NCBI GenBank assembly: GCA_963716945.1
Contig: OY970322.1
Coordinates: 210,001-242,000 of the forward strand
DNA: 32,000 bases
Reading direction: 5' to 3'
From: Candidatus Saccharimonadota bacterium
Lineage (GTDB): Bacteria > Patescibacteriota > Saccharimonadia > Saccharimonadales > UBA4665
A program made the position numbers and the translations under genes. A model generated the notes under the pieces. The model was not told the DNA's origin and did not search any database. It saw only the letters and a program-made list of their open reading frames with translations. The number at the start of each line of letters is the position of its first letter. The stretch's first letter is position 1. Below are positions 5,132 through 22,493 of this stretch, piece after piece.

Positions 5132-5173
5132 ACTGTGTTTTTCAGCCCCCGCAAGGTGTAAGCGCCCGGCTTC

Positions 5174-5182
5174 TGGTATAAT
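5174..5182 (+). promoter_or_regulatory. extended -10 (TGGTATAAT), 8 nt upstream of the argC ATG; putative leaderless promoter
   Basis: Sequence is TGGTATAAT-taatagag-ATG with no SD between. Confidence 0.55.
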
Positions 5183-5190
5183 TAATAGAG

Positions 5191-6213: not shown

Positions 6214-7355
6214 CTAAGACCGACGGCGGCATCCTGGCCGCCAAGGGCTTCAAGGCCGGCAGCGCCGAGGCGGGGATTAAAGCCGCCGGCGGCCTGGACC
6301 TGGGTATTATATGGTGCGAAACGCCGGCGGCAACGGCCGCGATTTTCACCCAAAACAGCGTTCTCGCCGCGCCGGTCCAGCTCAGCCGGCCGCGCGCCAA
6401 GAACGGCGACGCCCAAGCCATAGTCGTCAACAGCGGCAACGCCAACTGCATGACCGGCGAAACCGGCAAGCAGCACGCCGGACAGATGACCCGCGACACG
6501 GCTAAATTACTCGGTATCGACGAAGCCAAGGTTCTGGTGGCTTCGACCGGCATAATCGGCAAACCGCTGCCGATAGATAACGTTCTAAACGGTATCGGGG
6601 CCGCTTTCGCCCAAGCCGCCTCGTCGGCACAGGCCGCGGCCGACTTCGCCCAGGCCATCACCACGACCGACACGGTTACCAAAACCGTCGCTTACGAATG
6701 TGAAATCGGCGGCCAGACAGTAACCGTCGGCGGCTGCGCCAAGGGCTCGGGCATGATGCAGCCGAACATGGCCACCATGCTGGCCTTCCTGACTACCGAT
6801 GCCGCCATAGCGCCCGGGCTGCTCGACCAAGCGCTCCGCGAGGCTGCCCGGACCACCTTCAATTCAATTACCGTCGACGGCATGACCAGCACGAACGACA
6901 TGCTGGCGATTATGGCCAGCGGCCAAGCCGGCAACGCAGCTATCAATGCAGAGAACGAGGCCTATAACACTTTCCTAGAAACGCTCCGGCAAGCCTGCCT
7001 GGACCTGGCGCTAATGATTGTCCGCGACGGTGAGGGCGCGACCGTGCTGGTCAAAGTCAACGTCAAAGGTGCCGCCGATTACGAACAGGCCAAGGCCATC
7101 GCTTACGAAGTCGCCAATTCGCCGCTGGTCAAAACCGCTGCCCACGGCCGGACCGGCAATTGGGGCCGCATCGCCCAGGCTATCGGCAAACTCGGCTTGC
7201 CGATCACCGAGGAGTCGCTTGAGATAGAGGCCGATAGCCCCTCGGACGACCAGCTTGACCTGACAATTACTACCAAGCTCGGATCGGCCGACGCCACCGT
7301 CTATACCTGCGATTTCAGCAAGGACTACATCGACATCAACGTCGCCTACAATTAA
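6210..7355 (+). CDS. argJ: bifunctional ornithine acetyltransferase / N-acetylglutamate synthase
   Basis: Has GCAKGSGMMQPNMATMLAFLTTDA, including the conserved autoproteolytic A|TML site. Confidence 0.95.
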   Translation: MTKTDGGILAAKGFKAGSAEAGIKAAGGLDLGIIWCETPAATAAIFTQNSVLAAPVQLSRPRAKNGDAQAIVVNSGNANCMTGETGKQHAGQMTRDTAKLLGIDEAKVLVASTGIIGKPLPIDNVLNGIGAAFAQAASSAQAAADFAQAITTTDTVTKTVAYECEIGGQTVTVGGCAKGSGMMQPNMATMLAFLTTDAAIAPGLLDQALREAARTTFNSITVDGMTSTNDMLAIMASGQAGNAAINAENEAYNTFLETLRQACLDLALMIVRDGEGATVLVKVNVKGAADYEQAKAIAYEVANSPLVKTAAHGRTGNWGRIAQAIGKLGLPITEESLEIEADSPSDDQLDLTITTKLGSADATVYTCDFSKDYIDINVAYN

Positions 7356-7591
7356 GCACCGCCTTAAAGGGCCGGGCCAATCGGGTATACGCCGGGCCTG
7401 GACCGGCCGTTTTCAAGCACCCCCATAAGAACAGTATGAAAGCTATATGGAAACATATGTTTTGGTAATGTTTTGACACTGTTCCCGTACAGGCCTTGCG
7501 GAGCGCCAATAGAAGATAAGTCACAAGCATCTAAGACGGCCGCATGAACCGAGCTACGGCCCAGGCCGCCTGGAATACCCCCGCCGCCGTC

Positions 7592-7600
7592 TGTTAGAAT
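7592..7600 (+). promoter_or_regulatory. extended -10 (TGTTAGAAT), 7 nt upstream of the argD ATG; putative leaderless promoter
   Basis: Sequence is TGTTAGAAT-agaacga-ATG with no SD. Confidence 0.55.
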
Positions 7601-7607
7601 AGAACGA

Positions 7608-8777
7608 ATGACGCCGCAAGAATTTGACCAGTACGTTCTGCCAGCATACCAACGTTTCCCGATTACCATTGTCCGCGCTGAAGGCAGCTATATATATGAC
7701 AGCGAAGGCAAGCAATACCTGGACTTTCTCTCCGGCTGGGGGGTCTCCAATCTCGGCCACCGCCCGCCGGCCGTAGTCCAAGCCATCGAAAAGCAGGTCA
7801 AAGAGCTGATTCACGTTCCCAATGTTTTCTATACCGAGCAGCAGGGCCGGCTGGCCAAAATGCTGGTCGAAAACAGTATCGAAGGCAAGGTCTTCTTCGG
7901 CAACAGCGGTGCCGAAGCCAACGAAGCCGCCATCAAGTTCGCCAAACTCTACGGCCGGGGCCAAAGGCACAAGATAATTACCGCCGAACGGTCTTTTCAC
8001 GGCCGGACCTCGGCTACGATGGCGGCGACCGGGCAGACCAAAATCAAAACCGGGTTCGAACCGCACTTGCCCGGTTTCGTCCACGTGCCGCTCAACGATA
8101 CCCAAGCTCTGGTTAACGCCATAGACGCCCAGACGGTAGCCATAATGCTGGAGCTGGTCCAAGGCGAGGGCGGTATCAATATAGCCACGCCTCAATACCT
8201 GGCGGAGGTCAAGCGCGTTTGCCGTGAAAACGACCTCCTGCTAATTGTCGACGAAGTTCAATCGGGCATGGGCCGGACCGGACCCTTATTCGCTTACCAG
8301 AACCATGACCTGGAGCCTGATATCATAACCGTTGCCAAGGCGCTGGCCAGCGGCTTGCCGATCGGCGTTGCCATCGCCGGCAGCAGGGTCGCCGAACTCG
8401 TCAAGCCGGGTATGCACGGCAGCACTTTCGGCGGCGGAGCGCTGGTTTCGGCGGCGGCGATAGCGACTCTGGAGGTTATTCTGAAGCCTGAGACCGCCGA
8501 GAACGTAAAAGCGCTGACAGCCTTGCTGGCCGGCAAGCTTTCTGACCTGGCGGCCAAGCACGGCTGCATTACCGAACTGCGCCAGCAGGGCCTGATGATC
8601 GGCTTGGAGCTGGACCGCGATTCAGGTCCCGCCGCCGAGGCCTGTTTGCAGAAGGGGCTGTTTGTCAACAGCACCCAAGGCAACGTAATCCGGCTGCTGC
8701 CGCCGCTTAACGCTACCGCCGAAGAAGTCGAAACGGCGGTTGCCATATTGGATGAGGTGCTTCAAGCGCAAACATGA
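7608..8777 (+). CDS. argD: acetylornithine aminotransferase (class III PLP)
   Basis: Has GNSGAEANEAAIKFAK, DEVQSGMGRTG and the TVAKALASGLPIG PLP-lysine region. It overlaps argB by 4 nt. Confidence 0.93.
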   Translation: MTPQEFDQYVLPAYQRFPITIVRAEGSYIYDSEGKQYLDFLSGWGVSNLGHRPPAVVQAIEKQVKELIHVPNVFYTEQQGRLAKMLVENSIEGKVFFGNSGAEANEAAIKFAKLYGRGQRHKIITAERSFHGRTSATMAATGQTKIKTGFEPHLPGFVHVPLNDTQALVNAIDAQTVAIMLELVQGEGGINIATPQYLAEVKRVCRENDLLLIVDEVQSGMGRTGPLFAYQNHDLEPDIITVAKALASGLPIGVAIAGSRVAELVKPGMHGSTFGGGALVSAAAIATLEVILKPETAENVKALTALLAGKLSDLAAKHGCITELRQQGLMIGLELDRDSGPAAEACLQKGLFVNSTQGNVIRLLPPLNATAEEVETAVAILDEVLQAQT

Positions 8778-10060
8778 AAATCGCCGACTTACCAGCCAAA
8801 CAAGCCGAGCGCTACCTCAAGGATTTACAAAAATTTGAGGCCCACCGCCAATTACTGATCAAGGTCGGCGGCGGCCTGCTGGAGGACGAAACGGCAGTTC
8901 TGGAACTGTCCGAAGCTCTCGCCGAACTGGCCAGGCATGGCATTCACACGCTGCTTATTCATGGCGGCGGCCCGCAGCTCAGCGAGGCGATGAAGCGCTA
9001 CAAGGTCGATGCCCGGTTCATTGACGGCAAGCGCTACACCGACGAAGCGACGCTCAAACTGGCCAAGTCCGTCTTCGCCGGCCTAACGAACGACCTGGTA
9101 AAAGCGCTCCAGGCCAACGGCATTGACGCCGCGGCCCTGCCCGCCGAAGAGTTGTTCAAAGCCAAGCGTGACCCGGCCCTCGGTTTGGTCGGCACCGAAG
9201 TAACGTCCGTGGCGTCCAAGGCCATCATTGATGCCCTGAGCCGGGCCTCGGTACTGGTCCTGTACCCACTGGCCCGTGATACCGATACCGGTGAAACGCT
9301 TAACGTCAACGCCGACACTATTTTCCGGGCTTTGGCGACCGAGCTACAGCCCCACCGTATGACCAGCCTGAGCCCGACCGGCGGTGTCCTCAAGCTGATT
9401 GACGACACCGACGCCCACGAGATAATCAGCGGCATCGATATCCGCGACATAGAAGGCCTAATCGCCGAAGGCACCGTCAGCGGCGGCATGGCGCTGAAGC
9501 TGCGCGAACTGGCGACCATCCTCAGCCGCCTGGAAACCGGCTCAGCGATTTCGATTACCAAGCCGTCCGAGCTGCTGGCCGAGCTGCTGACCGACCAAGG
9601 CTCGGGCACTTTCGTCGGCAAAGGCCAGAAGATCATTACCACGACCGACATCGGCCCGGTCTTTAACGACTTTTCGGCGCTGATCGAAGAGGCGTTCGGC
9701 AAGGCCCTGCCCGCCGGCTATGATAAGAAACCATTCGAGAAAATCTACTTCACGGCCGACCACCAGGCGTTCGGCGTCGTGACCAGGCTATCAGACGGTA
9801 CGGCCTACCTCGACAAGCTGGCCGTTTCGCCCCAGCTGCAGGGCCGCGGCGTCGGAGAGAGCCTCTGGTATAAAATTACTGCCGACTACCCGGTCATACT
9901 CTGGCGCTCCCACGTCACTAACCGCTATTCGACCTGGTACCACCGGCACGCCGACATTATGAAACGCCATGGCGAATGGATTCTCTTCGGCCGCGGCGTC
10001 GATTTCCCGAAACTCGAAGCTATGACCGAGGAGCTGGCTGCCATTCCGGCCATGCGCTAG
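8774..10060 (+). CDS. argB: acetylglutamate kinase fused to a C-terminal N-acetyltransferase (NAGS/K-type) domain
   Basis: 428 aa. The N-terminal amino-acid-kinase fold has LLIKVGGG and LLIHGGGPQ. The C-terminal ~150 aa has AYLDKLAVSPQLQGRGVGESLW, which resembles the NAT domain of bifunctional NAGS/K enzymes. Confidence 0.85.
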   Translation: MKIADLPAKQAERYLKDLQKFEAHRQLLIKVGGGLLEDETAVLELSEALAELARHGIHTLLIHGGGPQLSEAMKRYKVDARFIDGKRYTDEATLKLAKSVFAGLTNDLVKALQANGIDAAALPAEELFKAKRDPALGLVGTEVTSVASKAIIDALSRASVLVLYPLARDTDTGETLNVNADTIFRALATELQPHRMTSLSPTGGVLKLIDDTDAHEIISGIDIRDIEGLIAEGTVSGGMALKLRELATILSRLETGSAISITKPSELLAELLTDQGSGTFVGKGQKIITTTDIGPVFNDFSALIEEAFGKALPAGYDKKPFEKIYFTADHQAFGVVTRLSDGTAYLDKLAVSPQLQGRGVGESLWYKITADYPVILWRSHVTNRYSTWYHRHADIMKRHGEWILFGRGVDFPKLEAMTEELAAIPAMR

Positions 10061-10083
10061 CTACCCGCCAACCCGGCTTAATC

Positions 10084-10092
10084 TGTTAAACT
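10084..10092 (+). promoter_or_regulatory. extended -10 (TGTTAAACT), 7 nt upstream of the argS ATG; putative leaderless promoter
   Basis: Sequence is TGTTAAACT-aagggca-ATG with no SD. Confidence 0.5.
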
Positions 10093-10099
10093 AAGGGCA

Positions 10100-11773
10100 A
10101 TGAAAGATGAGCTAGAGCAGCAAATCGCGGCGGCCTGCCAGGCCGAATTTGACGTCGAAGCCGGCATCGAACTGACCCGGCCCGAAGAACAGTTTGGCGA
10201 CTACGCCACCAACGCGGCTCTGCAATTATCCAAACAGCTGGGTAAGAATCCGCGCGAAATCGCCGAAACCCTGGCCGTGAAACTTCGCGAAACCTTACAT
10301 GAACAGATCAGCGAAGTAACGGTCGCCGGCCCGGGCTTCATCAACCTGAAGCTAAACGACGAAGCTCTAAAGACCTCACTCGAAGCCAAGCCGCGGCAAT
10401 CGCTGCAAGGCCAAACCGTAGTCGCCGAATACTCCGACCCCAACCCGTTCAAGGTCCTGCACGCCGGCCACCTCTATACCAGTGTCGTCGGCGACGCTAT
10501 CGGCAACTTGCTGGAGACAGCCGGCGCGACCGTCCACCGGGTAAATTTCGGCGGCGACGTCGGCCTGCACGTCGGCAAAACCATGTGGGCCATAATCCAA
10601 GAGCTAGGCGGTGAAAACCCGGACAAACTAGCGGCCGTTCCGGATGCCGGCCGTTCCGACTGGATGGCGCTAGCCTACGTCCAAGGCACCCGGGCCTACG
10701 AAGAAGACGAAGCCGCCAAACCCGAAATCATCGAACTCAACCAACGGGTTTACCGCCTTTACGCCGACAACGACCACGATTCGCCGTTCGCCCAAATATA
10801 CTGGACCTGCCGCCAGTGGAGTTACGACTACTTCGACAGCTTTTACGAACGCATCGGCACCGAATTCGAGAAATACTATCCGGAAAGCGAAACCGCTCCG
10901 CTCGGCCTGCAAACCGTCCGCGACCACATCGGTGAAGTTTACGAAGAAAGCGACGGCGCGGTCGTCTTCAACGGCGAGCAATACGGTTTGCACACCCGGG
11001 TTTTCATTAATTCCAACGGCCTGCCGACATACGAAGCCAAAGACGTCGGGCTGATCATGAAGAAGTGGCAGGACTACCGGTTCGACCAGTCAATCATCAT
11101 CACCGGCAACGACATCATCGAGTACATGAAAGTCGTCCTCAAAAGCATCGAGCAGTTCATGCCCGAATTATCATCGCGCAGCCGCCACTTGACGCACGGT
11201 ATCGTCAAACTGGCCGGCGGCACCAAGATGAGCAGCCGCCAGGGCAACATCCTGCGCGCCGCCGACGTGTTGACGGCCGCCGCCGAAGCCAATCAGCGGG
11301 CCGCCGGCCACGATGATGACCAGACCACCCTCGGCGCCGTCAAGTACGCCTTCCTGAAAATCAGGACCGGCGGCGACGTCATCTACGACCCGGCCGAGTC
11401 GGTCAGCCTGGAAGGCAATAGCGGTCCGTACCTGCAATACGCCCACGCCCGCGCCCGCTCGATCCTGCGCAAAGCCGGCGACGGACAGGCCAAACTGCCC
11501 GATGAGGCCGATTTCGAAGCCGGCGAGCGCTCGCTGGCCCGCAAAATCAGCGAATACTCCGAAACCGTCGACAAAGCCGTCGCCGAACTGATGCCGCACC
11601 ACGTCTGCGCCTACCTCTACGAATTGGCCCAGGTTTTTAACCGTTTCTACGAGCACAACCGGGTCATCGGCGACGGCCGGCAGGACGTGAGGCTGGCGCT
11701 GGTCGGCCGCTATGCCGAGACCCTGCGTTCCGGCCTGGAACTGCTAGGCATTGCCGCGCCGGAACAGATGTAG
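10100..11773 (+). CDS. argS: arginine--tRNA ligase
   Basis: 557 aa class I aaRS with a HIGH-type motif (LHAGHLYT), a KMSKS-type motif (GTKMSSRQGN) and a DALR-like C-terminus. Confidence 0.96.
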   Translation: MKDELEQQIAAACQAEFDVEAGIELTRPEEQFGDYATNAALQLSKQLGKNPREIAETLAVKLRETLHEQISEVTVAGPGFINLKLNDEALKTSLEAKPRQSLQGQTVVAEYSDPNPFKVLHAGHLYTSVVGDAIGNLLETAGATVHRVNFGGDVGLHVGKTMWAIIQELGGENPDKLAAVPDAGRSDWMALAYVQGTRAYEEDEAAKPEIIELNQRVYRLYADNDHDSPFAQIYWTCRQWSYDYFDSFYERIGTEFEKYYPESETAPLGLQTVRDHIGEVYEESDGAVVFNGEQYGLHTRVFINSNGLPTYEAKDVGLIMKKWQDYRFDQSIIITGNDIIEYMKVVLKSIEQFMPELSSRSRHLTHGIVKLAGGTKMSSRQGNILRAADVLTAAAEANQRAAGHDDDQTTLGAVKYAFLKIRTGGDVIYDPAESVSLEGNSGPYLQYAHARARSILRKAGDGQAKLPDEADFEAGERSLARKISEYSETVDKAVAELMPHHVCAYLYELAQVFNRFYEHNRVIGDGRQDVRLALVGRYAETLRSGLELLGIAAPEQM

Positions 11774-11790: not shown

Positions 11791-12312
11791 ATGGCGAAAA
11801 AATCTCAGCGGCAAAATTCCGGCAGGGCAACCAATACCGGCGGCACCATCCGTTTCGAAATACCGGCCAGCAGCCGCCAGGCCAAGCAGCAGGTTATTAT
11901 TACTCCCGACATTCATCCGGTCAGCGGTTTCGTCGATTTCCTGCGCGAACACGCCGTCGTCGGCCTGGCCATCGGTTTCGTCATCGGTACGCAGGTGCAG
12001 TCGCTGGTCAAGCAACTGGTCTCCAGCTTCATCGACCCGCTGTTCAAGCTGCTGCTGGGGCAGGCTTTGAGCCAGCGTACTTTCACGCTGCACTGGCACG
12101 GCCGGGCGGCCAACTTCGGCTGGGGCGCTTTCGTTTACGCCCTGCTGGACTTCATTTTCGTACTGGCCGTCATCTATGTCGTCGTCAAATCTCTGCACCT
12201 CGACGAACTGGATAAGCCCAAGCACAAGCCCAAACACCAGGGCAAGCTGCGCAAAAAAGTAGAAGAACTCAAAGTCGAACTGGAGGACGAAGAAGATGAA
12301 ATTATCGGATGA
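11791..12312 (+). CDS. mscL: large-conductance mechanosensitive channel with N-terminal extension
   Basis: [39 protein letters not shown] matches the MscL TM1 signature. A second TM and a charged C-terminal helix are present. Confidence 0.8.
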
Positions 12313-12685
12313 CGAGTGGAAAACCAAGCTCACCCCGGAGCAATACCACATCCTGCGCGAGAAGGGCACCGAAGCCCCGTTCACCGGCAAGCTATTGAAC
12401 CAGCACGGCACCGGCGACTTCATCTGCGCCGCCTGCGGCGCGGTGGTCTTCAAGAGCGACACCAAGTTCGACAGCGGCAGCGGCTGGCCGAGCTTCTACG
12501 ACCCGGCCAACACCGAAGCCGTCAAGCTCACCGAAGACACCAGCCTCGGTATGCACCGGGTCGAAGTCCAGTGCGCCAATTGTGGCAGCCACTTGGGCCA
12601 CGTTTTCAACGACGCGCCCGACCAGCCCACCGGCATGCGCTTCTGTATCAACTCGGCCGCCCTCGACTTCAAAGAAAAGAAATAG
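12296..12685 (+). CDS. msrB: peptide-methionine (R)-S-oxide reductase
   Basis: Two CxxC zinc motifs ([21 protein letters not shown]) and a catalytic RFCINS Cys. Confidence 0.95.
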
Positions 12686-12736
12686 TACGACCTAGCCTGC
12701 AGCGATTACCGGAACCGGATTGACGTATCCTCATTA

Positions 12737-12800
12737 TGTCTAAAATTAAACATAAATTGTTATAATTGAACAATTATCTCAGTAAATTTACTTTTTGCAA
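12737..12800 (+). repeat. copy A of a 64-bp AT-rich upstream module (promoter plus conserved leader)
   Basis: An ungapped hand alignment to 14952-15015 gives 54/64 identical positions. It contains TGTTATAAT and the 10-bp palindrome GTAAATTTAC. Confidence 0.85.
12758..12766 (+). promoter_or_regulatory. extended -10 (TGTTATAAT) for the 12859 operon; predicted ~85-nt leader ending in an AAGGAG SD
   Basis: Consensus TGnTATAAT lies inside repeat copy A, and AAGGAG sits 8 nt before the ATG at 12859. Confidence 0.55.
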
Positions 12801-12858
12801 CTTACCTGTCACTATATCCCGGTAAAGCTCTAGCAAAATAATTCAAGGAGAATACTTT

Positions 12859-13617
12859 ATGTCAGGAAGTGAAGGCGCTCCTGCTGACCCGGGACAAGAC
12901 CCTGCTATAGTCGATCCGGCAGCGGCAAACCAAGCTGACCAAACTTTAAGCCCTGAGCAAATGGCAGCCCGGGCTGAGGAACGCATGGAAGACGTTTATG
13001 ACATCGTTGTAAGCGGCGGCATCGTACGTAATACCCTGGAATTTGGGCATGATCCCAGTAGGCCCGACGATGTATTAACCCCCGCCCTGTATACGGACGG
13101 GGTTGGGATTGCAACTGCACCCGGAGAGAAAGGCGTTGGCATGGAAGCCCCGGTTACGGGAGTCCACGCCAATCGTCCAGATACAGTACCGAGCCCGTTT
13201 AAATCTAGGGAACAGCCCCTGGACCGACCGGATGCAAGCCTAGACTTTTCTCCTGATGGTCGTTACATGTCGCGGCCAAGTCGCGGCCGAGAAGGGCGCG
13301 CAAAGGTACCTCGTTTTGTGAGACTTGTTACGAGAAACGAACAAGGCGAACCTATATATGAAGATGAAGCTTTCCATCTCAAAGACGGCCTGCGCGGCTA
13401 TGCCGTCCAAAGAAAGACTCTTGAAGGTGCCGGTGACGCTCAATACGACCAGGAACCGCATACCGACGTAGAAGAGTTTACTAGGATTGTCACTGAAGCC
13501 ACTGACATAGTTTTGGCTGCGACTAAGGCTCGTGCGGAACAGGAACAGGCGAAACGTACGGTAGCCGAAGCAAGACTTGTAGTAATGGCCGCAAAGGCAC
13601 TGGCTGACTTTAATTAG
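12859..13617 (+). CDS. hypothetical protein (orphan, acidic, largely low-complexity/disordered-looking, coiled C-terminus)
   Basis: 252-aa ORF with a strong SD (AAGGAG-N8-ATG). Its codon usage is AT3-rich relative to its neighbours. I recognise no motif, TM segment or signal peptide. Confidence 0.7.
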   Translation: MSGSEGAPADPGQDPAIVDPAAANQADQTLSPEQMAARAEERMEDVYDIVVSGGIVRNTLEFGHDPSRPDDVLTPALYTDGVGIATAPGEKGVGMEAPVTGVHANRPDTVPSPFKSREQPLDRPDASLDFSPDGRYMSRPSRGREGRAKVPRFVRLVTRNEQGEPIYEDEAFHLKDGLRGYAVQRKTLEGAGDAQYDQEPHTDVEEFTRIVTEATDIVLAATKARAEQEQAKRTVAEARLVVMAAKALADFN

Positions 13618-13632
13618 GGGGTAAACCAAATC

Positions 13633-14262
13633 ATGACAAGAGAACAAGTATCCGCCGATCCGGCTACAGACCTGCCTACACATGATCCGGTGGCACCCCA
13701 GGAACAAGGCCACGAGGCTGATATATTTACCCGTGAGGCAGAGGCCAAACGGGTTATACACGACTCGGCCGGTGCTTTAATGGAGCGTCTCAGACCGGGA
13801 AAGCCGTTTAGGCTCGTACTTGATGTACAGCGCGGTGAACGGGAGCCTGATTCAGCAGGTTTCTATAGGGCATTTCCGCAGGGCACACTTTACCTATATA
13901 CAGAGGTTGACCAAAGAGCGGGTGAACACTATTACGAAATCGGCGAAGCGATGATAAGACCTATTACACTTGATGGGCGTCGAGGCGGCCCAGTCGACAG
14001 TGCTAAACAAGTAGAAGCGGCAATGATTAGTGAGAATTTTCTTGGAAACTTTCAGGATGGTGAAGCGCGTACCAACGATCATCACGACGGCTTGCGCTTT
14101 AGGTTGGCAAGAAGCGCTCGACAGGAAGAGATCGATCCTCGCGCTACCGACGAACGAGTCGTAGCAATACAAGAGATATTAGGCCGAGCTTTGCAGGAAG
14201 TTGTTGGTCGGCTGGAAGCGTCCCAGCAGTCTCAGGAGGCAAATCCGTCCCCAGTAGCCTAA
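13633..14262 (+). CDS. hypothetical protein (orphan)
   Basis: 209-aa ORF starting 15 nt after the previous stop, with an AGGGGG SD-like element upstream. It uses the same atypical codons. I recognise no motif. Confidence 0.65.
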   Translation: MTREQVSADPATDLPTHDPVAPQEQGHEADIFTREAEAKRVIHDSAGALMERLRPGKPFRLVLDVQRGEREPDSAGFYRAFPQGTLYLYTEVDQRAGEHYYEIGEAMIRPITLDGRRGGPVDSAKQVEAAMISENFLGNFQDGEARTNDHHDGLRFRLARSARQEEIDPRATDERVVAIQEILGRALQEVVGRLEASQQSQEANPSPVA

Positions 14263-14945
14263 TGATGGGATGCGGCTCCAGAGCCTTGTTTTTTGACGGT
14301 CTGAAGACCCTGGCGGATTGAGGCGACGGCGCGGTCGACCTCGAAATCGCGGACGACCATCATGATTTCGTTCAGGGTGGTGATGATTTCGATGACCGAA
14401 ATGCCTTCCCAGGCCAGGATGCGCAACGGAAATTGCAGCACGCCGGTGGTTTCGATCTGGCCGTGGGTGCGTTGCAGGCTGATGCCGGTCAGGTCCGGAA
14501 TCGTGCTGACGATAGTCTCGTCTTTGAGCGCCGCCTTAAGGTCTTTGTCCAGGCTTTTACTGGTGATAATTGTGGTTTCGTGCTGGCCCTGGGTGAAGAC
14601 GAACAGCGACGTGTGCCGGTCGTCCATTGCCTGGGCCATGAGCGACAATTTGGCTAGCAGGGCGGGGGAGTTCTTGACTGTCAGTTCGAATAGGTCAGAC
14701 CTGAGCGCCATATTGGCCAGATAATCAGCCGGGTTAACCTGGTAATAGGGCTTCATGGCCGCGGCGTAGCGCTGCAGCGCGATGAATACGGCACTTTCGC
14801 TTACATCCTTAACCAGATCTTTCTCGATCTGCGGCTTGAGCTGCCGGGCCAGGGCCGACAAATTGACCAGTTTGTCAGACATCGCCTCGCGCAGGTAAGG
14901 CGACTGGTTGACGAGTTCTTCGACTTTTTCGGGAATCGTGATCAT
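14259..14945 (-). CDS. ACT-domain-like small-molecule-binding protein (aspartokinase C-terminal-like)
   Basis: 228 aa with host-like GC and codon usage. The C-terminal ISVIEIITTLNEIMMVVRDFEVDRAVASIRQ resembles an ACT beta-alpha-beta-beta-alpha-beta unit. The family call is from memory only. Confidence 0.4.
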   Translation of the reverse strand: MITIPEKVEELVNQSPYLREAMSDKLVNLSALARQLKPQIEKDLVKDVSESAVFIALQRYAAAMKPYYQVNPADYLANMALRSDLFELTVKNSPALLAKLSLMAQAMDDRHTSLFVFTQGQHETTIITSKSLDKDLKAALKDETIVSTIPDLTGISLQRTHGQIETTGVLQFPLRILAWEGISVIEIITTLNEIMMVVRDFEVDRAVASIRQGLQTVKKQGSGAASHH

Positions 14946-14959
14946 TAGCTCTGTCTAAA

Positions 14960-14967
14960 ATTATACA
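14960..14967 (-). promoter_or_regulatory. extended -10 (TGTATAAT) for the ACT-like gene
   Basis: Minus strand reads TGTATAAT-N14-ATG(14945). It lies inside repeat copy B. Confidence 0.5.
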
Positions 14968-14975
14968 TTACTTAT

Positions 14976-14981
14976 TATATA
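14976..14981 (+). promoter_or_regulatory. -10-like hexamer TATATA for the 15061 ORF (positional equivalent of the TATAAT in copy A)
   Basis: It aligns column-for-column with 12761-12766. AAAGGAG lies 10 nt before the ATG at 15061. Confidence 0.45.
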
Positions 14982-15060
14982 TGAACAATTATATCAGTAA
15001 TTTTACATTATGCAAGTGTTTATGTTGTAATTGTCCTGCTATGAAAGGAGCAGCTATTAA

Positions 15061-15918
15061 ATGAGCGAGCAAGCCAAACAAGAGAATCTAGTCGTTGCCG
15101 GTGTTCAGTTGCCTATCACAAGCAATGAAGTATTTATAGAACCAGCGCTTAGTACTGTGTTGGAAGCGGCAGAGGCAAGCCTAAAGGACCATGAAGGTGC
15201 CGAGGGCGACACCTCATCTTATCCTTTTCGTCTTGCCCAGTATGCGGTCCTTGGCGTAACTGAGCTCGCCGCGGTCAGCAATCTGCTCAAATCTCCTGAG
15301 CAAACAGACCAGCTTCTAGCAGCTATAAGCGATCAAAGAGGCAGCTTCTGGGAGGTATTTGACCCTTCGGCGGCGCACAAAGGCCTTACTACATCATCGC
15401 TTGAGTGGGCTAAGCAACAACTGGCTACCGACGCTCCATTAGACGCTGTAGAGATTAAGGACGGTCAAGGCAATTCAATAACTGCCGGGATAAGAGGATT
15501 TATTGAAAAAGTGAGACTTGAAGGGGGTAGGCCTTATGAAATGAGACAGCCAGAACTTTGGGTTAATGTATCAGGCCCAGGTGGTGGGAGCGCTCATTCT
15601 ATTATCCTTGATTACCGGGCTAAGCTTAGGGGCGCTGAAAGAGGCGTATATGCGAGTAAACTTGAGCGCTGGACGCTGAACTGGCAGTCTAGGGAATCGG
15701 GGCATCGACATATGCGCCAGCTGGCCACTCTGGTGCCTTTCTATGGGTCCACGGGCGACTGGATGCGTCTGGTGGACAGGGAAGAGCTAATAGATGGTCA
15801 TTCAGGCGATATTCTTACGAGAACACAATACAGAGTCTTGACCCCTGCCACGGGCGTGGTTCGGAGTGACTCCGCAGTGTACGATAGGAGAGTGATTGAT
15901 AATATGCTGAACGACTAA
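15061..15918 (+). CDS. hypothetical protein (orphan)
   Basis: 285-aa ORF with a strong SD and many AGA/AGG/CTT/GGT codons that are rare in neighbouring genes. I recognise no motif, TM segment or signal peptide. Confidence 0.7.
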   Translation: MSEQAKQENLVVAGVQLPITSNEVFIEPALSTVLEAAEASLKDHEGAEGDTSSYPFRLAQYAVLGVTELAAVSNLLKSPEQTDQLLAAISDQRGSFWEVFDPSAAHKGLTTSSLEWAKQQLATDAPLDAVEIKDGQGNSITAGIRGFIEKVRLEGGRPYEMRQPELWVNVSGPGGGSAHSIILDYRAKLRGAERGVYASKLERWTLNWQSRESGHRHMRQLATLVPFYGSTGDWMRLVDREELIDGHSGDILTRTQYRVLTPATGVVRSDSAVYDRRVIDNMLND

Positions 15919-16280
15919 GTGCGTCCGGAGTACTTAGTGCCCCAAGCGGCCATTTGCTTGAGGATGGGGAGGAGGTCGGTGCCTTTGGAGGTGAGGGCGT
16001 ATTCGGTGCGGGGCGGGACTTCGGCGTAGCTTTTGCGGGTAATGATGCCTTCGGCTTGCAGGTCGTCCAGGCGTTGGCTGAGCGTGCGGGGGTTGATGCT
16101 GCCGACCGAGCGTTCGAGTTCGCAGAAACGTTTCGGGCCGCTGAACAGGTCGCGCAGGATTAGTGCGGTCCATTTGTTGCCGATGATTTGCATGGCACTG
16201 GCGATGCAGCCGACGTGCGGCTCCAGCGGCTTGGCTGCCGCGGCGCGGGGACTGGCTTGCGTAACTGAGGCGGTTTTCAT
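15915..16280 (-). CDS. HxlR-family winged-helix transcriptional regulator
   Basis: GNKWTALILRDLFSGPKRFCELERSV..INPRTLSQRLDDLQAEGIITR...PPRTEYALTSKG is the canonical HxlR pattern. Confidence 0.9.
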   Translation of the reverse strand: MKTASVTQASPRAAAAKPLEPHVGCIASAMQIIGNKWTALILRDLFSGPKRFCELERSVGSINPRTLSQRLDDLQAEGIITRKSYAEVPPRTEYALTSKGTDLLPILKQMAAWGTKYSGRT

Positions 16281-16290
16281 AGCTTTACAA

Positions 16291-16312
16291 AGTATAGTTA
16301 TGCATCTATACT
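16291..16312. promoter_or_regulatory. inverted repeat AGTATAG-N8-CTATACT (candidate HxlR operator)
   Basis: Perfect 7-bp arms lie in the 77-bp divergent intergenic region. A third AGTATAG copy is at 16335-16341. Confidence 0.5.
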
Positions 16313-16357
16313 GGTTAGATTAATAACTATAAAAAGTATAGCATAGGAGAACAAAAT

Positions 16358-16954
16358 ATGAAACTAGCTGTTATCATCGGTGCTACCCGCCAAGGCCGCA
16401 AAACCCCGCAGCAGGCCAAATGGGTGGCTAACACCGCCAAAGGAATGAAGGACGTCGAAGTTGAATTGATCGACCTTAAAGACTATCCGATGCCATTCTT
16501 TGACGAGCCGGTCTCACCGCGTTATAACCCCGACCGCCAGATTGACCCGGCCGTTAAGCCTTGGCTCGACAAGCTGACCGCGGCCGATGCTTACGTGTTC
16601 GTGACACCTGAGTATAATCACTCGGTTACCGGCGTCCTCAAGAACGCTCTGGACTACGTCACCTGGGAACTGCAGCGCAAACCGGCGCAAGTGGTTTCGC
16701 ATGGCGCGGCCGGCGGCGCCCGGGCCGCGACCGACCTCAAGGAAATCCTGTCCGAGAGCAAGGCCGTGCCGCTGCCGACGTACTCGCCGCTGGCCATGGC
16801 CGGTATGAGCGAGATGATCGACGAGGCGGGTAATTTGTCCGAAGCCGCCAAGGCGAACCCCTACGGACCGCAAACTGCCTTGGGGACCATGCTGGATGAG
16901 TTAAAATGGTACAGCGACGCGCTGGCCGCGGCTCGCACCGAAAATCAGACATAG
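16358..16954 (+). CDS. NAD(P)H-dependent FMN reductase family oxidoreductase
   Basis: Has the FVTPEYNHSVTGVLKNALDY signature and a flavodoxin-like N-terminus. It is divergent from the HxlR gene, a common pairing. An AGGAG SD is present. Confidence 0.85.
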   Translation: MKLAVIIGATRQGRKTPQQAKWVANTAKGMKDVEVELIDLKDYPMPFFDEPVSPRYNPDRQIDPAVKPWLDKLTAADAYVFVTPEYNHSVTGVLKNALDYVTWELQRKPAQVVSHGAAGGARAATDLKEILSESKAVPLPTYSPLAMAGMSEMIDEAGNLSEAAKANPYGPQTALGTMLDELKWYSDALAAARTENQT

Positions 16955-17016: not shown

Positions 17017-17577
17017 ATGATTGACAAACACGCCGTTTCGACCAAGCTGCTGTGGGTGGATTTGGAGATGACAGGGCTTGATCCGCTGGAGGACGTGATA
17101 CTCGAAGTGGCGGCCGAAGTCACTGACTTCGATTTCAAGACCCTGGCCAGCTACGAAGCTATCGTCAAGCAGCCGCGCGACTTGGTGATCGAGCGGATGG
17201 GCAAGAATATCTGGTGGAAAGACTATCCCAAGAACCGCGACGAGTTCGTCCGCAAGCTGGACGACGGCAAACCGGCCGAAGAGGTCCAGAGCGAGCTGAT
17301 TGGGCTGATCGAGACGCATTTCGGCGACGAGCCGGCGGTTTTGGCCGGCAACAGCATCCACAATGACCGCAGCTTTATCAAACAATGGTGGCCGCAGTTG
17401 GACCTGAAGCTCCACTACCGCATGCTTGACGTCAGCGCTTGGAAGGTTCTCATGCAGGCCAAATACGGCGTCCAGTTCGAGAAGAAAGAAATCCACCGCG
17501 CGTTCGACGACATCCAGGCCTCAATCGCCGAGTTGCAGCATTACCTGGAGTGGTTCAAAGACCAGCAGGCCGATTAA
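17017..17577 (+). CDS. orn: oligoribonuclease (DEDDh 3'-5' exonuclease)
   Basis: Has LLWVDLEMTGLD, GNSIHNDRSFI and HRAFDDIQASIAEL (DEDDh motifs). The start is moved to the second Met on promoter grounds. Confidence 0.9.
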   Translation: MIDKHAVSTKLLWVDLEMTGLDPLEDVILEVAAEVTDFDFKTLASYEAIVKQPRDLVIERMGKNIWWKDYPKNRDEFVRKLDDGKPAEEVQSELIGLIETHFGDEPAVLAGNSIHNDRSFIKQWWPQLDLKLHYRMLDVSAWKVLMQAKYGVQFEKKEIHRAFDDIQASIAELQHYLEWFKDQQAD

Positions 17578-18854
17578 GAGAACTGGATTTGCTGGTCGCC
17601 GGTGCGTTCCGGCGAAATCCAGTGGCTGGCGACCCGGCTGCGGTTGAGGGCCTGCTTGAAGTTGAAGATACAGCGGAAAATAGCCGCCAGCTGAATAACA
17701 TTCATTAGGTAGAACACGAAGTACATCATCGGCGCGTAGAGGCTCATCTTGAGCTTCTTGGCGGCATTCATGTGTTCATCCGGCCAAACGTTGAGCAACA
17801 AGTATAAGGTGATGGTCATGTAGGCGCCGATCAGCATCGAGGGGTTGAACAGCAGGTAGCAGACATAGATGACGTAGCCGATCGCCAGCGGCTCCAGCAG
17901 CAGCATCAATTCGCCCAGGAAAGCCATCGGCAGGCGGTAGAACGTTAGTCCGCGGCTGTAGCGTTTGTCGGTGTTGGCGACCAGGCCGCGGTACTTGATG
18001 AGGTTTTGCAGGCTGCCGAGTTTCCAGCGGTAGCGCTGGCGCATCAGGCCCTTGAAAGTCTGAACGCCTTCGGTCATGGCCAGGACGTTGGCGGCGTAAA
18101 TGATACGGTGTTCGCGGTTGCCCTGGGCGACGACCTTGAGGCTCAGGCCGATGTCTTCGGTCGTGGTGTCGTTGTCGTAGAGATGGACTTTTTTGAGCAT
18201 GTCGCGGCGGTAGGTCGAGGCGACGCCGCCGACGATGAACTCGCTGTTGGTGATGGAGAAGAACTTTTTGGAACGGTAGCCGACCATGTGCTCGAATTTT
18301 TGCAGCAGGCCGAGCATGCTCAGGCTGTCCAGGATACGGACGTTAGCCGCTACGCCGACCACTTTGGGGTCGTCGAAATAGGTAACGGCATTGCTGATGC
18401 TCTTGCGGTGGAGTACGGAGTCGGCATCGAGCGCCATGACCAGGTCGCCGGTAGCGCCCCGCCGCAGGGCGTGGTTGAGGGCTTCGGCTTTGCCGCCGTT
18501 GACCCGCTTGTACATTAGCCGGATATCGCGGTTCGGGTGCTGCTTGATATATTGGCGTACCAGCCGGCGGGTGTCGTCGGTCGAAGCGTCGTCGATGACG
18601 ATGATCTCAAGCTTGCGGTAGGTGTTCTTGCGGACCGATTCCAGGCAGCGCACGATGCCGGCCGCTTCGTTGTGGGCCGGGATCAGGACGCTGACTTTGG
18701 GCCGGAGCTTGTGGTGCGAGCGGGCGGCCATGCGGGCGTGGCGCCGGAACTGCCAGATGTCGTAGTAATTGGCACCGACCAGATAGAGGCCCAGGTGGAC
18801 GATATCGATCACGCTGATGGTGATGAAAAGGTAGAACAAGAATTGCAGAAACAT
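17574..18854 (-). CDS. processive family-2 glycosyltransferase (PgaC/IcaA/NodC-like membrane synthase)
   Basis: Has VLIPAHNE, IVIDDASTDDT, ALDADS, TEDIGLS and QRYRWKLG (the Q-x-x-R-W processivity motif), with an N-terminal TM segment and about 4 C-terminal TM segments. Confidence 0.85.
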   Translation of the reverse strand: MFLQFLFYLFITISVIDIVHLGLYLVGANYYDIWQFRRHARMAARSHHKLRPKVSVLIPAHNEAAGIVRCLESVRKNTYRKLEIIVIDDASTDDTRRLVRQYIKQHPNRDIRLMYKRVNGGKAEALNHALRRGATGDLVMALDADSVLHRKSISNAVTYFDDPKVVGVAANVRILDSLSMLGLLQKFEHMVGYRSKKFFSITNSEFIVGGVASTYRRDMLKKVHLYDNDTTTEDIGLSLKVVAQGNREHRIIYAANVLAMTEGVQTFKGLMRQRYRWKLGSLQNLIKYRGLVANTDKRYSRGLTFYRLPMAFLGELMLLLEPLAIGYVIYVCYLLFNPSMLIGAYMTITLYLLLNVWPDEHMNAAKKLKMSLYAPMMYFVFYLMNVIQLAAIFRCIFNFKQALNRSRVASHWISPERTGDQQIQFS

Positions 18855-18856
18855 CG

Positions 18857-19435
18857 TTAAACCACTTGTACGAGCTTAAACACGAACAGCGTGCGGTTTT
18901 GGTACCACAGGCCCGAGCACGTTTGCAGGGTTAGGATCGGCGGACCCTGGTAGGTGAAGAGGGAAGTGTCGGTCGGTTTAGTGATGCGTTCGCTAACCAT
19001 CTTGTAGACGAACTTGTGGTTATTGGTGGTCGTGACTATGGCTTCGTCACCGGGCTGGACCTTGAGCAATTTATAAAAGACGGCCCAGCGGTTGTGGCCA
19101 TAAATGAAAGTGTTGCCGTTGCCGTTGTTCGGCTCGGGCGTGACGGTAGCATATTCGGCATTGGTGAGGCTCAGAGACCACGTCTGGGAGGCCTTATTGT
19201 AGTAGCCGGGGTCGATGTCGTCGGAAATGTCTACGCCGGGGATGTCGATATGGGCCGGGAAGCCGCTGATGGTCGGTTTTTTCAGGGTGGAAGTACTGCT
19301 GGCCTGGGAAGCGAAGAAGGGCTGGGAATTCCTTTGCTGCCAAGACTGTATCAAGTGCTGGGAACTCAGAAACAGGCCTGTCAGGACAAGGAGCAGGCCG
19401 ATCGTGAAATAAAATCGTAGCTTCTGGTTCTTCAT
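18857..19435 (-). CDS. sortase-family transpeptidase
   Basis: N-terminal membrane anchor, catalytic His (FIYGHN), the LTLQTCSG catalytic Cys motif and a downstream Arg (NRTLFVF). It ends 2 nt before the GT2 start. Confidence 0.85.
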   Translation of the reverse strand: MKNQKLRFYFTIGLLLVLTGLFLSSQHLIQSWQQRNSQPFFASQASSTSTLKKPTISGFPAHIDIPGVDISDDIDPGYYNKASQTWSLSLTNAEYATVTPEPNNGNGNTFIYGHNRWAVFYKLLKVQPGDEAIVTTTNNHKFVYKMVSERITKPTDTSLFTYQGPPILTLQTCSGLWYQNRTLFVFKLVQVV

Positions 19436-19446
19436 GTCTAAAGTCC

Positions 19447-19491
19447 AACAAAAAGAGGGGGCGGGAGCTTGATAAGCGCCCGTATCCCCTC
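19447..19491 (-). terminator. hairpin plus T-tract between the mini-LPXTG gene and the sortase (terminator/attenuator)
   Basis: Minus strand reads GAGGggatacGGGCG-loop-CGCCCCCTC followed by TTTTTGTT. Confidence 0.45.
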
Positions 19492-19518
19492 CTTGTTCTT
19501 GCGTCGGTCGACGGCTAT

Positions 19519-19704
19519 TTAGGCTTTGTAGGCCTGCTTAGCCGCGAACCGGGCAATTGTTGAAAGCATGATAACTCCACCGGTTACGATGCTTATGATA
19601 GAAGTAACCAGCAAAAGATGGTTACCACCAGTGTTTGGTAGAACAGCAACACCGGCTACCGTAGTAGCTGCTGATGCTGCGCCGCCGCCTTTGCCTCCGT
19701 ACAT
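19519..19704 (-). CDS. 61-aa protein consisting almost only of an LPXTG sorting signal (LPNTG + TM + RFAAKQAYKA tail)
   Basis: Sequence is MYGGKGGGAASAATTVAGVAV-LPNTG-GNHLLLVTSIISIVTGGVIMLSTIA-RFAAKQAYKA. An AGGAGG SD lies upstream and a consensus promoter is present. The gene is adjacent to the sortase. Confidence 0.7.
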   Translation of the reverse strand: MYGGKGGGAASAATTVAGVAVLPNTGGNHLLLVTSIISIVTGGVIMLSTIARFAAKQAYKA

Positions 19705-19745
19705 AGTACGTCCTCCTATTAACAGAGAATTCGGGTCTACGAACC

Positions 19746-19770
19746 ATACCTGTTCACGTGTGACAGGTAT
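19746..19770. promoter_or_regulatory. 25-bp dyad ATACCTGT-N9-ACAGGTAT (centre CACGTG) in the 5' leader of the mini-LPXTG gene
   Basis: Perfect 8-bp arms lie between the predicted promoter and the SD. Confidence 0.45.
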
Positions 19771-19805
19771 ACCCTCGCAGAGATTCCGCGCTCTCTTAAA
19801 GACTT

Positions 19806-19833
19806 ATTATACATAATGCTGACAACTTGTAAA
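19806..19833 (-). promoter_or_regulatory. sigma70-type promoter TTTACA-N16-(TG)TATAAT for the mini-LPXTG gene
   Basis: Minus strand reads TTTACAagttgtcagcattaTGTATAAT. It predicts a leader of roughly 95 nt. Confidence 0.6.
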
Positions 19834-19878
19834 GTATATTATTTGAATTGCTTATGCTAAGGTGTCATGGCATGCTAA

Positions 19879-19900
19879 ATACCCGGCCGGAACCGGGTAT
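19879..19900 (-). terminator. hairpin ATACCCGG-N6-CCGGGTAT downstream of the deacetylase stop
   Basis: The 8-bp stem is 33 nt after the stop. Only a short T-run (TTT) follows on the minus strand. Confidence 0.4.
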
Positions 19901-19932
19901 CTATTCAGGCCTCCCGACCGGCTGTTTTGGCG

Positions 19933-22200: not shown

Positions 22201-22269
22201 AAGACTAAGTTCCCGATTAATAGCTTGCTATTAAGGACAGAACACCACCATACTGACCGTTGGCTCATT

Positions 22270-22297
22270 AGTATATAATTAATTCTAATAATTGCAA
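22270..22297 (-). promoter_or_regulatory. sigma70-type promoter TTGCAA-N16-TATACT for the deacetylase gene
   Basis: Minus strand reads TTGCAAttattagaattaattaTATACT, about 70 nt upstream of the ATG at 22200. Confidence 0.45.
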
Positions 22298-22493
22298 TAC
22301 CTTTTTGGCGCCATCCGCCATTTTATTTTGATTTATATCTGTAAAAATGACATTAAAAGTCAAGTTAAAATTAATTGCCTTCGCAGCACAAGCATAATGA
22401 ATAAAAAGCTGAAGCGTTTTGATGCCGGCCCGGGTTCCGCCGGACAATTTTATCGGCACCGGCCAGCTGTATTACAATATTGCCTAGACGCTT

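Follow-up and report, generated by a model that had tools for sequence, protein, structure and literature searches.

Orphan genes beside a conserved ACT-domain gene in a Candidatus Saccharimonadota genome: two putative expression slots fed by recombination

The locus and its genes

The subject of this analysis is a small locus in the genome of a Candidatus Saccharimonadota bacterium, in which three open reading frames (ORFs) that match no characterised family lie on either side of a gene for an ACT-domain protein. It was studied within a stretch of 32,000 nucleotides of contig OY970322.1 (assembly GCA_963716945.1, positions 210,001 to 242,000), which is called the window below and whose numbering is used throughout; the features concerned are collected in Table 1. 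ORF1 and ORF2 occupy the interval between msrB and the 3' end of the ACT gene (slot A), ORF3 occupies the interval between the 5' end of the ACT gene and hxlR (slot B), and the genes of each slot are referred to as its cargo. Both cargo units extend as far as the stop codon of a convergent host gene: the stops of ORF2 and ORF3 overlap those of the ACT gene and of hxlR, respectively, by 4 nt. A preliminary description of this DNA, made from its letters alone, had proposed that the three ORFs form a co-regulated module of unknown function, possibly working with the ACT protein, and that they are either laterally acquired or a distinct native expression class.

Table 1. Features of the locus and of related loci; positions refer to the window unless another locus (L followed by a number) is named.
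Feature	Position	Strand	Length	Description
msrB	12296..12685	+		Left flank of slot A; Pfam SelR, E = 9.5e-50
Module copy A	12737..12800	+		Conserved putative bidirectional promoter-operator block upstream of ORF1
ORF1-type 5' leader	12816..12858	+		Travels with the ORF1 family
ORF1	12859..13617	+	252 aa	Rare, fast-evolving family, known only from slot A of this lineage
ORF2	13633..14262	+	209 aa	True orphan, starting 15 nt past ORF1
ACT/DUF7523 gene	14259..14945	-	228 aa	Fixed element of the locus; candidate ligand-responsive regulator
Module copy B	14952..15015	+		Putative divergent promoter block between ACT and ORF3
ORF3-type leader	15032..15060	+		AAGGAG leader
ORF3	15061..15918	+	285 aa	Very rare family in slot B, transcribed divergently from the ACT gene
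hxlR	15915..16280	-		Right flank of slot B; Pfam HxlR, E = 3e-30
FMN reductase gene	16358-16954			Pfam FMN_red, E = 9e-38
L023 mosaic locus	L023 5735-8681			ACT, HxlR and FMN reductase nearer to the window lineage than to its own
Asparaginase-like genes	L023 6780-7892; L005 8175-9263; L004 4218-4736; L009 (oriented) 720-1238; L019 15310-15813

All three ORFs are present where they were first proposed and are genuine coding frames, with 0 stops in the coding frame as compared with 4-25 in each other frame, and with a higher G+C content at first than at second codon positions (GC1 > GC2) in ORF1, ORF2 and ORF3. Two coding tests indicate that ORF2 is coding despite its zero homologues: its in-frame codon frequencies follow those of ORF1 and ORF3 combined (r = 0.69; the other two frames give -0.07 and -0.12), and its frame stayed open in 0 of 20000 shuffles. 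The predicted proteins have net charges of -10 to -15 and, as had been stated, no transmembrane segment (maximum 19-residue hydropathy of at most 1.3 in each). Their N-termini are all acidic, whereas the richness in proline also ascribed to them holds for ORF1 and ORF2 and less so for ORF3. The three ORFs share one reading frame, and a TAG and four sense codons alone separate ORF1 from ORF2; since relatives terminate ORF1 at the same position, this adjacency looks like a coincidence and not like a split gene.

Codon usage foreign to the host

The ORFs had been described as compositionally foreign and uncharacterised, and both parts of that description were borne out. The window has a GC content of ~59%, and the G+C content at third codon positions (GC3) of its 27 other genes has a mean of 0.745 (sd 0.047, minimum 0.63), so that the values of ORF1 (0.447), ORF2 (0.438) and ORF3 (0.472) correspond to z-scores of -6.4, -6.5 and -5.8. 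The hand counts of codons ending in A or T by which this difference was first noticed proved exact (41 of 74 in ORF1 and 22 of 84 in argC). Five codons said to be frequent in the ORFs and rare in their neighbours are indeed so distributed, as is evident from their frequencies per 1000 codons in ORF1-3 and in the neighbouring genes: AGA (22.8 vs 1.3), GCA (29.5 vs 4.6), CTT (25.5 vs 7.1), GGT (21.4 vs 9.9) and AGG (14.7 vs 3.5).

Syntenic loci were gathered with the ACT protein and the core of the module as probes, from about a dozen related genomes and metagenome contigs, and they place this codon usage in a wider setting. The relative synonymous codon usage of ORF1-3 is uncorrelated with that of the window's own genes (r = 0.04) and resembles that of low-GC members of the same clade (r = 0.52-0.59) and of the cargo in L004 (r = 0.62). 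Cargo GC3 lies at 0.32-0.47 in every genome, regardless of host GC3, which is about 0.75 in the window, 0.66-0.80 in L004, 0.65-0.83 in L011, 0.29-0.39 in L002 and 0.32-0.46 in L023. ORF1-3 therefore combine the atypical composition and the patchy distribution (see below) by which genomic islands are recognised.

Rare or unique protein families

No recognisable motif had been seen in the three proteins, and searches of Pfam, PHROGs, NCBIfam, PADLOC and the PDB agree with that statement. ORF1 and ORF2 have zero Pfam and PHROG matches and ORF3 has non-significant ones only; NCBIfam and PADLOC gave no significant match for ORF1-3, and sequence and profile searches of the PDB gave none for these proteins or for the ACT protein. 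The search for characterised homologues that the preliminary description had recommended, by HMMER and by AlphaFold2 with Foldseek, likewise gave nothing significant: models predicted from shallow alignments reached a pLDDT (predicted local distance difference test) of 50 for ORF1 and 40 for ORF3, and a Foldseek comparison of these models with the PDB returned no match at E <= 0.001.

Homologues of any kind are few. Among 5.8 billion clustered proteins ORF1 has two relatives only, P0002 (85% identity) and P0003 from L003 (42%), to which the syntenic loci add those of L004 (46%) and L023 (44%); all are full-length, and with 42-85% identity overall the family evolves fast, its 42-46% being found where housekeeping proteins reach 84-92%. 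The same collection holds one relative of ORF3 (48%), and an exhaustive HMMER search with an ORF3 profile against 1.84 billion representative proteins found four true relatives (P0005, at 48%, P0007, P0008 and P0010), also full-length and 24-49% identical. P0005 (L002) and P0010 (L019) are encoded next to an ACT gene and P0007 (L018) next to hxlR at a contig end, and the L022 contig is too short to judge; a further candidate, P0009, was rejected as a tandem-repeat artefact. ORF2 has no relative among the 5.8 billion proteins, where the gene itself is the sole match. Paralogy among ORF1, ORF2, ORF3 and other cargo was rejected by hhalign, hmmsearch and blastp, and weak matches between cargo proteins at E = 0.001-0.1 were lost in profile comparison. 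Our guess is that ORF1-3 are cytoplasmic, acidic, fast-evolving accessory proteins and not three subunits of one machine.

A conserved module heads each slot

Each of the two units follows a copy of one 64-nt module, as had been noticed; the copies are 84% identical, and a 24-nt core occurs exactly twice in the window, where 0 occurrences are expected by chance. The module was found as 13 copies in 10 genomes, and an alignment of eight of these 13 defines an invariant core (TGTCTA..., AACAATT.T..CAGTA..TTTAC.TT..GCAA). Orthologous copies of module A are present in L003, L004, L017 and L023. In a metagenome scan every true match sits at slot A or slot B, matches to the core pattern at L012-L014 being dismissed as chance since they lack any flanking similarity, and a scan of the viral contigs of IMG/VR found none, so in the data examined the module is absent elsewhere than beside the slots of the ACT locus. 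Module B is 77-92% identical in pairs of genomes that share only 19-58% identity at the four-fold degenerate sites of the adjacent ACT gene; the module is therefore as constrained as the ACT protein, and such strong conservation supports the view that it is functional and under selection.

Promoter and operator elements in the module were read as consensus matches to the sequence only. On the best reading, the module is predicted to be a dense bidirectional promoter region of the sigma-70 type, in which a palindromic operator-like site covers the -35 element that serves the cargo. Copy A contains a perfect 12-nt palindrome, AGTAAATTTACT, at 12781-12792, which overlaps a -35-like TTTACT (12787-12792) that is followed, after 17 nt, by the -10-like CACTAT (12810-12815). 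Copy B has, toward ORF3, a -35 element TTTACA (15002-15007), a spacer of 18 nt and a -10 element TGTAAT (15026-15031), and its palindrome-like site at 14996-15007 matches the palindrome at 10 of 12 positions. Such a palindrome would explain the invariance of CAGTA, which falls outside any promoter hexamer. Toward the ACT gene, copy B has TTGTTC as -35 element (reverse complement of 14983-14988), a 17-nt spacer and an extended -10 element, TGTATAAT (reverse complement of 14960-14967), 14 nt ahead of the ACT ATG. The preliminary description was correct that the ACT gene is normal in composition (GC3 0.74) and that its predicted -10 element lies inside module copy B. A second promoter-like pair toward the ACT gene, TTGCA(A/T)-16-TGATATAAT or GATAAT, can also be read, and a promoter scanner reports this pair for copy A. 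Copy A retains the whole module, including the half that would serve the ACT gene, though there is no gene on that side, and inspection by eye upstream of module A found no conserved trace of an ACT 5' end.

The long AT-rich leaders that had been described measure 173 nt (GC 0.34) and 115 nt (GC 0.26). The canonical AAGGAG Shine-Dalgarno (SD) sequence claimed for the ORFs is present ahead of ORF1 (12845-12850, 8 nt before the ATG) and ORF3 (15045-15050, 10 nt before the ATG), whereas ORF2 has a weak GGGGG only, 11 nt upstream of its start. The ORF1-type leader, GTAAAACACTAGCAAAATAATTCAAGGAGA, is conserved in the window, L003, L004, L017 and L023, and an ORF3-type leader motif, ATGAAAGGAGC, is common to the window and the distant ORF3-family locus L019. 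Each cargo family carries its own leader and SD sequence, and in slot B the similarity between genomes with different cargo stops just past the -10 box. A riboswitch or structured leader was considered and rejected (no Rfam match at E <= 1; folding z-scores of -1.7 to +0.2). The contrast drawn earlier between SD-led ORFs and leaderless neighbours holds in part: in most neighbouring genes a TATAAT-like box precedes the ATG by 6-14 nt, which makes them look leaderless or short-leadered, but SD use is not distinctive of the ORFs, as the FMN (flavin mononucleotide) reductase gene, sigA, carB and the gene for a 61-aa LPNTG peptide are SD-led as well.

A fixed platform with changing cargo

The order msrB, slot A, ACT (reverse), slot B, hxlR, FMN reductase is kept in most of the closer relatives, and the hxlR flank is conserved in L002, L003, L004, L011, L018 and L023. 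The cargo changes. Slot B holds an ORF3-family gene in the window, L002, L018 and L019; genes for unrelated proteins of 345 aa and 336 aa in L004, the latter with a P-loop; a 429-aa P-loop protein in L011; proteins of 100 aa and 80 aa in L003 and of 157 aa and 117 aa in L015; a 153-aa protein followed by an asparaginase-like gene in L005; a double asparaginase-like protein of 370 aa in L023; and orphans of 424-506 aa, accompanied by a second orphan gene, in L006-L008. Slot A holds the ORF1 family in the window, the contig encoding P0002, L003, L004 and L023, is degenerate in L009 and is absent in L002; ORF2 occurs in slot A of the window only. About 25 cargo proteins of relatives were searched in Pfam, PHROGs, NCBIfam and PADLOC; leaving aside the asparaginase-like genes, no Pfam match rose above the gathering threshold and nothing significant came from the other collections, and no similarity between cargo families was detectable. 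In several genomes cargo stops overlap the convergent ACT or hxlR stops by 4 nt.

This patchiness is not what simple descent would produce, since L004, the closest relative (housekeeping proteins mostly 84-90% identical, range 68-90%), lacks ORF3, and the more distant L002 (63-77%) has it. In L018 a 275-aa orphan (838-1665) follows the ORF3-like gene, and a homologue identified by eye stands behind unrelated cargo in L015 (oriented, from about 950), which suggests that cargo genes are shuffled in differing combinations. Genes of another kind abut slot A in two loci, namely a MazE/AbrB-like antitoxin gene and a PIN-like toxin gene directly upstream of module copy A in L017 (oriented, 3375-4015) and a MazE-like gene alone in the same position in L003 (80-352).

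One relative carries direct evidence, read from its sequence, that recombination has joined lineages of different GC at this locus. By ArgS, MscL, MsrB and DnaG, L023 belongs to the L002 lineage, being 77-88% identical to L002 and 58-71% to the window. Its ACT, HxlR and FMN reductase proteins are nearer to the window (94, 86 and 73%) than to L002 (82, 81 and 54%), and its ACT gene has a GC3 of 0.60 in a host with GC3 of 0.32-0.46. This is most simply explained by homologous recombination in the conserved flanks, through which lineages of different GC would exchange cargo and at times the core as well. Exchange of this kind, if correctly inferred, would explain why cargo keeps the dialect of low-GC relatives, rich in A and T at third positions (AT3-rich), in a host with GC3 of 0.75. 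The lateral acquisition envisaged at the outset is supported by codon usage, patchy distribution and this mosaic.

The ACT protein as a candidate regulator

In enzymes and regulators, ACT domains serve to bind small ligands, amino acids among them. The protein encoded here reaches the DUF7523 cut-off of Pfam marginally (27.1 bits vs 27), its ACT_9 and ACT_7 matches are sub-threshold (E = 0.02-0.06), and its C-terminal ~100 residues weakly resemble the ACT domains of aspartokinases; no WYL or helix-turn-helix (HTH) family was matched in the Pfam scan. It is 72-96% identical across the compared genomes. In L002 the gene (9235-9893) is split into two frames and called as 139 aa, owing either to a frameshift or to a fault of assembly.

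The link to the ACT gene suspected in the preliminary description proved genuine and is conserved. All relatives examined combine the ACT gene with the module and a divergent SD-led gene, and L019 retains the arrangement of ACT, module and cargo in spite of a different wider context, which has his genes upstream and lacks hxlR. Since L004 has unrelated genes in the place of ORF3, however, the ACT gene is a conserved platform for interchangeable cargo, and probably a regulator, and not a specific partner of ORF1-3. Its neighbours include arginine or histidine biosynthesis genes, and asparaginase-N-terminal-like genes with single or double domains recur by or near it in five genomes (Table 1), none being present in the window. 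The persistence of the ACT-module pair in L019, the retention of the whole of copy A, the exclusivity of the module and the asparaginase-like, arginine and histidine neighbours together suggest that the ACT/DUF7523 protein is a candidate amino-acid-responsive regulator acting at the palindrome. Co-regulation of both units is plausible, as both share one promoter module.

Interpretation and alternatives

The account that we favour, and hold to be rather probable, is that recombination feeds two expression slots at this locus, both governed by a conserved bidirectional promoter-operator that the ACT protein probably regulates. Each slot would open with a copy of the conserved module (~65-90 nt) and receive promoter-less units made of a 5' leader, an SD sequence and one or more ORFs, such as ORF1-ORF2 in slot A and ORF3 in slot B of the window, with exchange taking place by homologous recombination in the conserved flanks. 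The ACT protein would sense a small ligand, probably an amino acid, and act at the module, so controlling its own promoter plus both cargo promoters. The anatomy and evolutionary behaviour of the locus rest on data, and to these the regulatory step and the function are added by inference. Several observations weigh against parts of this account. The ORF1 family sits in slot A with its own leader in low-GC and high-GC lineages alike, and the ORF3 family looks like the ancestral occupant of slot B, so that part of the pattern could reflect vertical descent with fast divergence and not swapping; an SD-led gene of low GC3, that of the LPNTG peptide (19519-19704), lies outside the slots; the promoter and operator calls are consensus matches in a region that fits several overlapping promoter-like hexamers; the N-terminal DUF7523 domain of the ACT protein is uncharacterised and has no relative in the PDB; the models of ORF1 and ORF3 are too poor for use; and the cargo proteins match none of the known families of defence proteins, toxins or effectors.

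Some of these observations agree with a native expression class, a reading that we consider unlikely but by no means negligible. ORF1-3 would then be vertically inherited, very fast-evolving residents whose low GC3 reflects escape from a GC-raising force, either because GC-biased gene conversion cannot act on alleles too divergent to recombine or through weak codon selection, and the differing cargo of relatives would represent loss and divergence past recognition. Consistent with this, the ORF1 family has the same slot and the same leader in the window, L003, L004 and L023, with a GC3 that is host-like in low-GC L023 (0.36) and intermediate in high-GC hosts (0.45); the ORF3 family stands beside the ACT gene even in distant L019; the 48% identity of ORF3 to its L002 homologue is near that of FMN reductase (53%) and MscL (55%) in the same genome pair; and the LPNTG gene, unrelated and outside the slots, also has a GC3 of 0.44. 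It is harder to reconcile with unrelated genes in slot B of the closest relative while distant L002 keeps ORF3, with cargo lengths and gene numbers that vary widely among genomes, and with the real import between lineages at this locus in L023; moreover, an accessory block elsewhere in the window (17574-22200) has a high GC3 (0.74-0.84), so that being accessory is insufficient to keep GC3 low.

The remaining alternatives carry far less weight. An insertion beside the ACT gene, be it a mobile island, the remnant of a prophage or plasmid, or a known system of the anti-phage or toxin-antitoxin kind, would account for the foreign composition, for the P-loop NTPase motifs in the 336-aa protein of L004 and the 429-aa protein of L011 (the latter with sub-threshold AAA_16 and KAP matches) and for the MazE/AbrB-PIN or MazE genes abutting slot A in L017 and L003, but there is little to recommend it: the 32-kb window holds, as first noted, no integrase or tRNA, and neither a transposase nor an Rfam family is present in it (the integrase result coming from Pfam scans of window genes not already identified by synteny), and its only direct repeats are the two promoter modules. 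No relatives were found in pattern and protein scans of IMG/VR or by tblastn in INPHARED phages (ORF1 and ORF3) and PLSDB plasmids (all three ORFs), and cargo proteins have no significant PADLOC or PHROG match; at the PADLOC thresholds used there was none for ORF1-3, the ACT protein or 13 of the 14 cargo proteins of relatives that were scanned, the weak matches of the 345-aa protein of L004 and the 429-aa protein of L011 being non-significant. The co-regulated functional module of ORF1-3 working specifically with the ACT protein, as originally proposed, is very improbable. The common promoter module and codon dialect, the acidic N-termini of all three proteins and the way in which the units bracket the ACT gene speak for it, yet the neighbourhood comparison recommended to examine it found the trio together only in this genome and in a 9.2-kb contig identical to it: L003, L004 and L023 have relatives of ORF1 but neither ORF2 nor ORF3, L002, L018 and L019 have relatives of ORF3 but neither ORF1 nor ORF2, ORF2 has no relative and is confined to this genome, profile comparisons show the three to be unrelated, and unrelated genes fill the slots in other genomes. 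It is hardly credible, finally, that the ORFs are stretches of AT-rich spacer DNA left open by chance, or else pseudogenes in decay. Their lack of family matches, the low AlphaFold confidence for ORF1 and ORF3 and the want of an ORF2 homologue might be cited in favour of such a view, but full-length homologues of ORF1 and ORF3 exist across genomes of 41-59% GC, and the distribution of stops among frames, the excess of GC1 over GC2, the agreement of ORF2 codon usage with that of ORF1 and ORF3 and the result of the shuffles all argue against it.

Comparison with known systems

Streamlined marine bacteria have hypervariable regions at fixed sites, and defence islands occupy hotspots between core genes. 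The slots resemble such recombination-replaced chromosomal hotspots in their fixed position between conserved msrB, ACT and hxlR genes, in a content that differs among close relatives, in their foreign composition, in the lack of an integrase or tRNA and in the imported tract evident in L023. They differ in being tiny, with one to few genes that are nearly all orphans, in the dedicated and strongly conserved promoter-operator module predicted to head each slot in two copies, and in cargo that appears to lack promoters of its own and fits exactly between that module and the stop of a convergent gene. The arrangement also recalls an integron with its resident Pc promoter, in that a conserved promoter-like module precedes interchangeable ORF units, which are predicted to have no promoters of their own, and genomes cease to be alike just past the -10 box. 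Unlike an integron, the window has no IntI integrase by Pfam scans and none was called in the related loci; attI and attC sites are missing, a repeat search having shown no recurring inverted repeat at cargo ends; and there are one or two genes per slot, whose exchange appears to be ordinary homologous recombination.

With ACT-domain amino-acid-responsive regulators the ACT protein shares its aspartokinase-like C-terminal ~100 residues and its arginine, histidine and asparaginase-like neighbours; it departs from typical members in having ACT matches below Pfam cut-offs and an uncharacterised N-terminal DUF7523 region. A further likeness, in the logic of the gene neighbourhood only, is to the WYL-domain BrxR/CapW regulators, which adjoin varied phage-defence systems (PMC9122601). 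In both cases the conserved gene for a protein with a small-ligand-binding domain adjoins highly variable accessory genes that are read divergently from it, and the promoter region between them holds a conserved palindromic site; the protein of the present locus combines an ACT domain with an N-terminal DUF7523 region, in place of a WYL or recognised HTH domain, and the cargo matches no known defence system. A literature search returned nothing relevant on DUF7523, OFTM59, or hypervariable regions or leaderless genes of Saccharibacteria.

What the locus may mean

A role of ORF1-3 in conflict (defence or counter-defence) or in host interaction can be predicted by analogy, though only as a tentative and rather doubtful proposal. 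The proteins have traits typical of genes of that kind, being cytoplasmic, acidic, fast-evolving and strain-specific, and it is also a conflict-type trait that slots elsewhere house P-loop NTPases and abut MazE/PIN genes. A broader conjecture, to which we attach a low probability, would make the locus an integrase-free gene-capture platform of a Saccharibacteria-like lineage, in which an ACT sensor and a duplicated bidirectional promoter-operator express, under regulation, the promoter-less cassettes delivered by recombination; ORF1-3 would then found new families with roles of this kind. The signal sensed by the ACT protein might report host-derived amino acids, and the slots would be a nursery for rapidly evolving orphan proteins used in the conflicts of an epibiont with its hosts or with phages.

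Ultra-small episymbiotic bacteria are rich in genes of unknown function, and there are few handles on those that are relevant to their lifestyle. This locus offers such a handle, namely a short cis-element that purifying selection constrains as strongly as the neighbouring protein, that is tied to the gene for a ligand sensor and that heads strain-specific orphan genes across the whole lineage. If the ACT protein controls the module, its ligand would reveal the signal for deploying the most variable proteins, and genetic work on this group would gain in the module a regulated promoter ready for use. The locus is also a clean natural example of accessory genes with a foreign codon dialect in a GC-rich host, with a recombination mosaic adjacent. 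Should the genes prove to be ordinary accessory genes, the finding would be a well-described type of hotspot and no more.

Neighbouring genes and other variable regions

The divergent intergenic region between hxlR and the FMN reductase gene contains a 27-nt imperfect inverted repeat (74%; 16282-16342) and a promoter-like TTTACA-17-TATACT at 16284-16312. The repeat is probably the HxlR operator, and hxlR more likely forms a pair, by way of this repeat, with the FMN reductase gene than with the cargo.

To the left of msrB, a full arginine-related cluster (35-11773) comprises OTC, carB, carA, argC, argJ, argD, an argB-NAT fusion and argS, in a genome of ~1.1 Mb; most of its genes have a -10 box right at the start codon, which gives them a leaderless look.

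A second variable region extends over 17574-22200 and has the normal high GC3 quoted above. It encodes a GT2 glycosyltransferase, a sortase (18857-19435), the LPNTG peptide and a 755-aa protein with Big_7, polysaccharide deacetylase and CBM_4_9 domains, and it is missing at this position in L002, L010, L011 and L023, where the RNase T gene is followed directly by YjbR or the next gene. The LPNTG gene adjoins the sortase gene, lies on the reverse strand, has a strong AGGAGG SD sequence and, in its GC3, is like ORF1-3; its product (MYGGKGGG...VAVLPNTGGNHLLLV...ARFAAKQAYKA) consists of a sortase-sorting signal, a hydrophobic stretch and a basic tail; a mature domain is all but missing, and there is no signal peptide. 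An AT-rich intergenic region of ~290 nt (22201-22493), which separates the YjbR gene (22494-22817) from the divergent gene for the surface protein, has no ORF of at least 110 aa (short unsupported frames only), no tRNA and no Rfam match.

At yet another site, L011 (oriented, 7208-7711) has an orphan ORF with a GC3 of 0.36 between an MFS (major facilitator superfamily) transporter gene and dnaG, where the window has 52 nt; AT3-rich orphan insertions therefore happen at other sites in this lineage as well.

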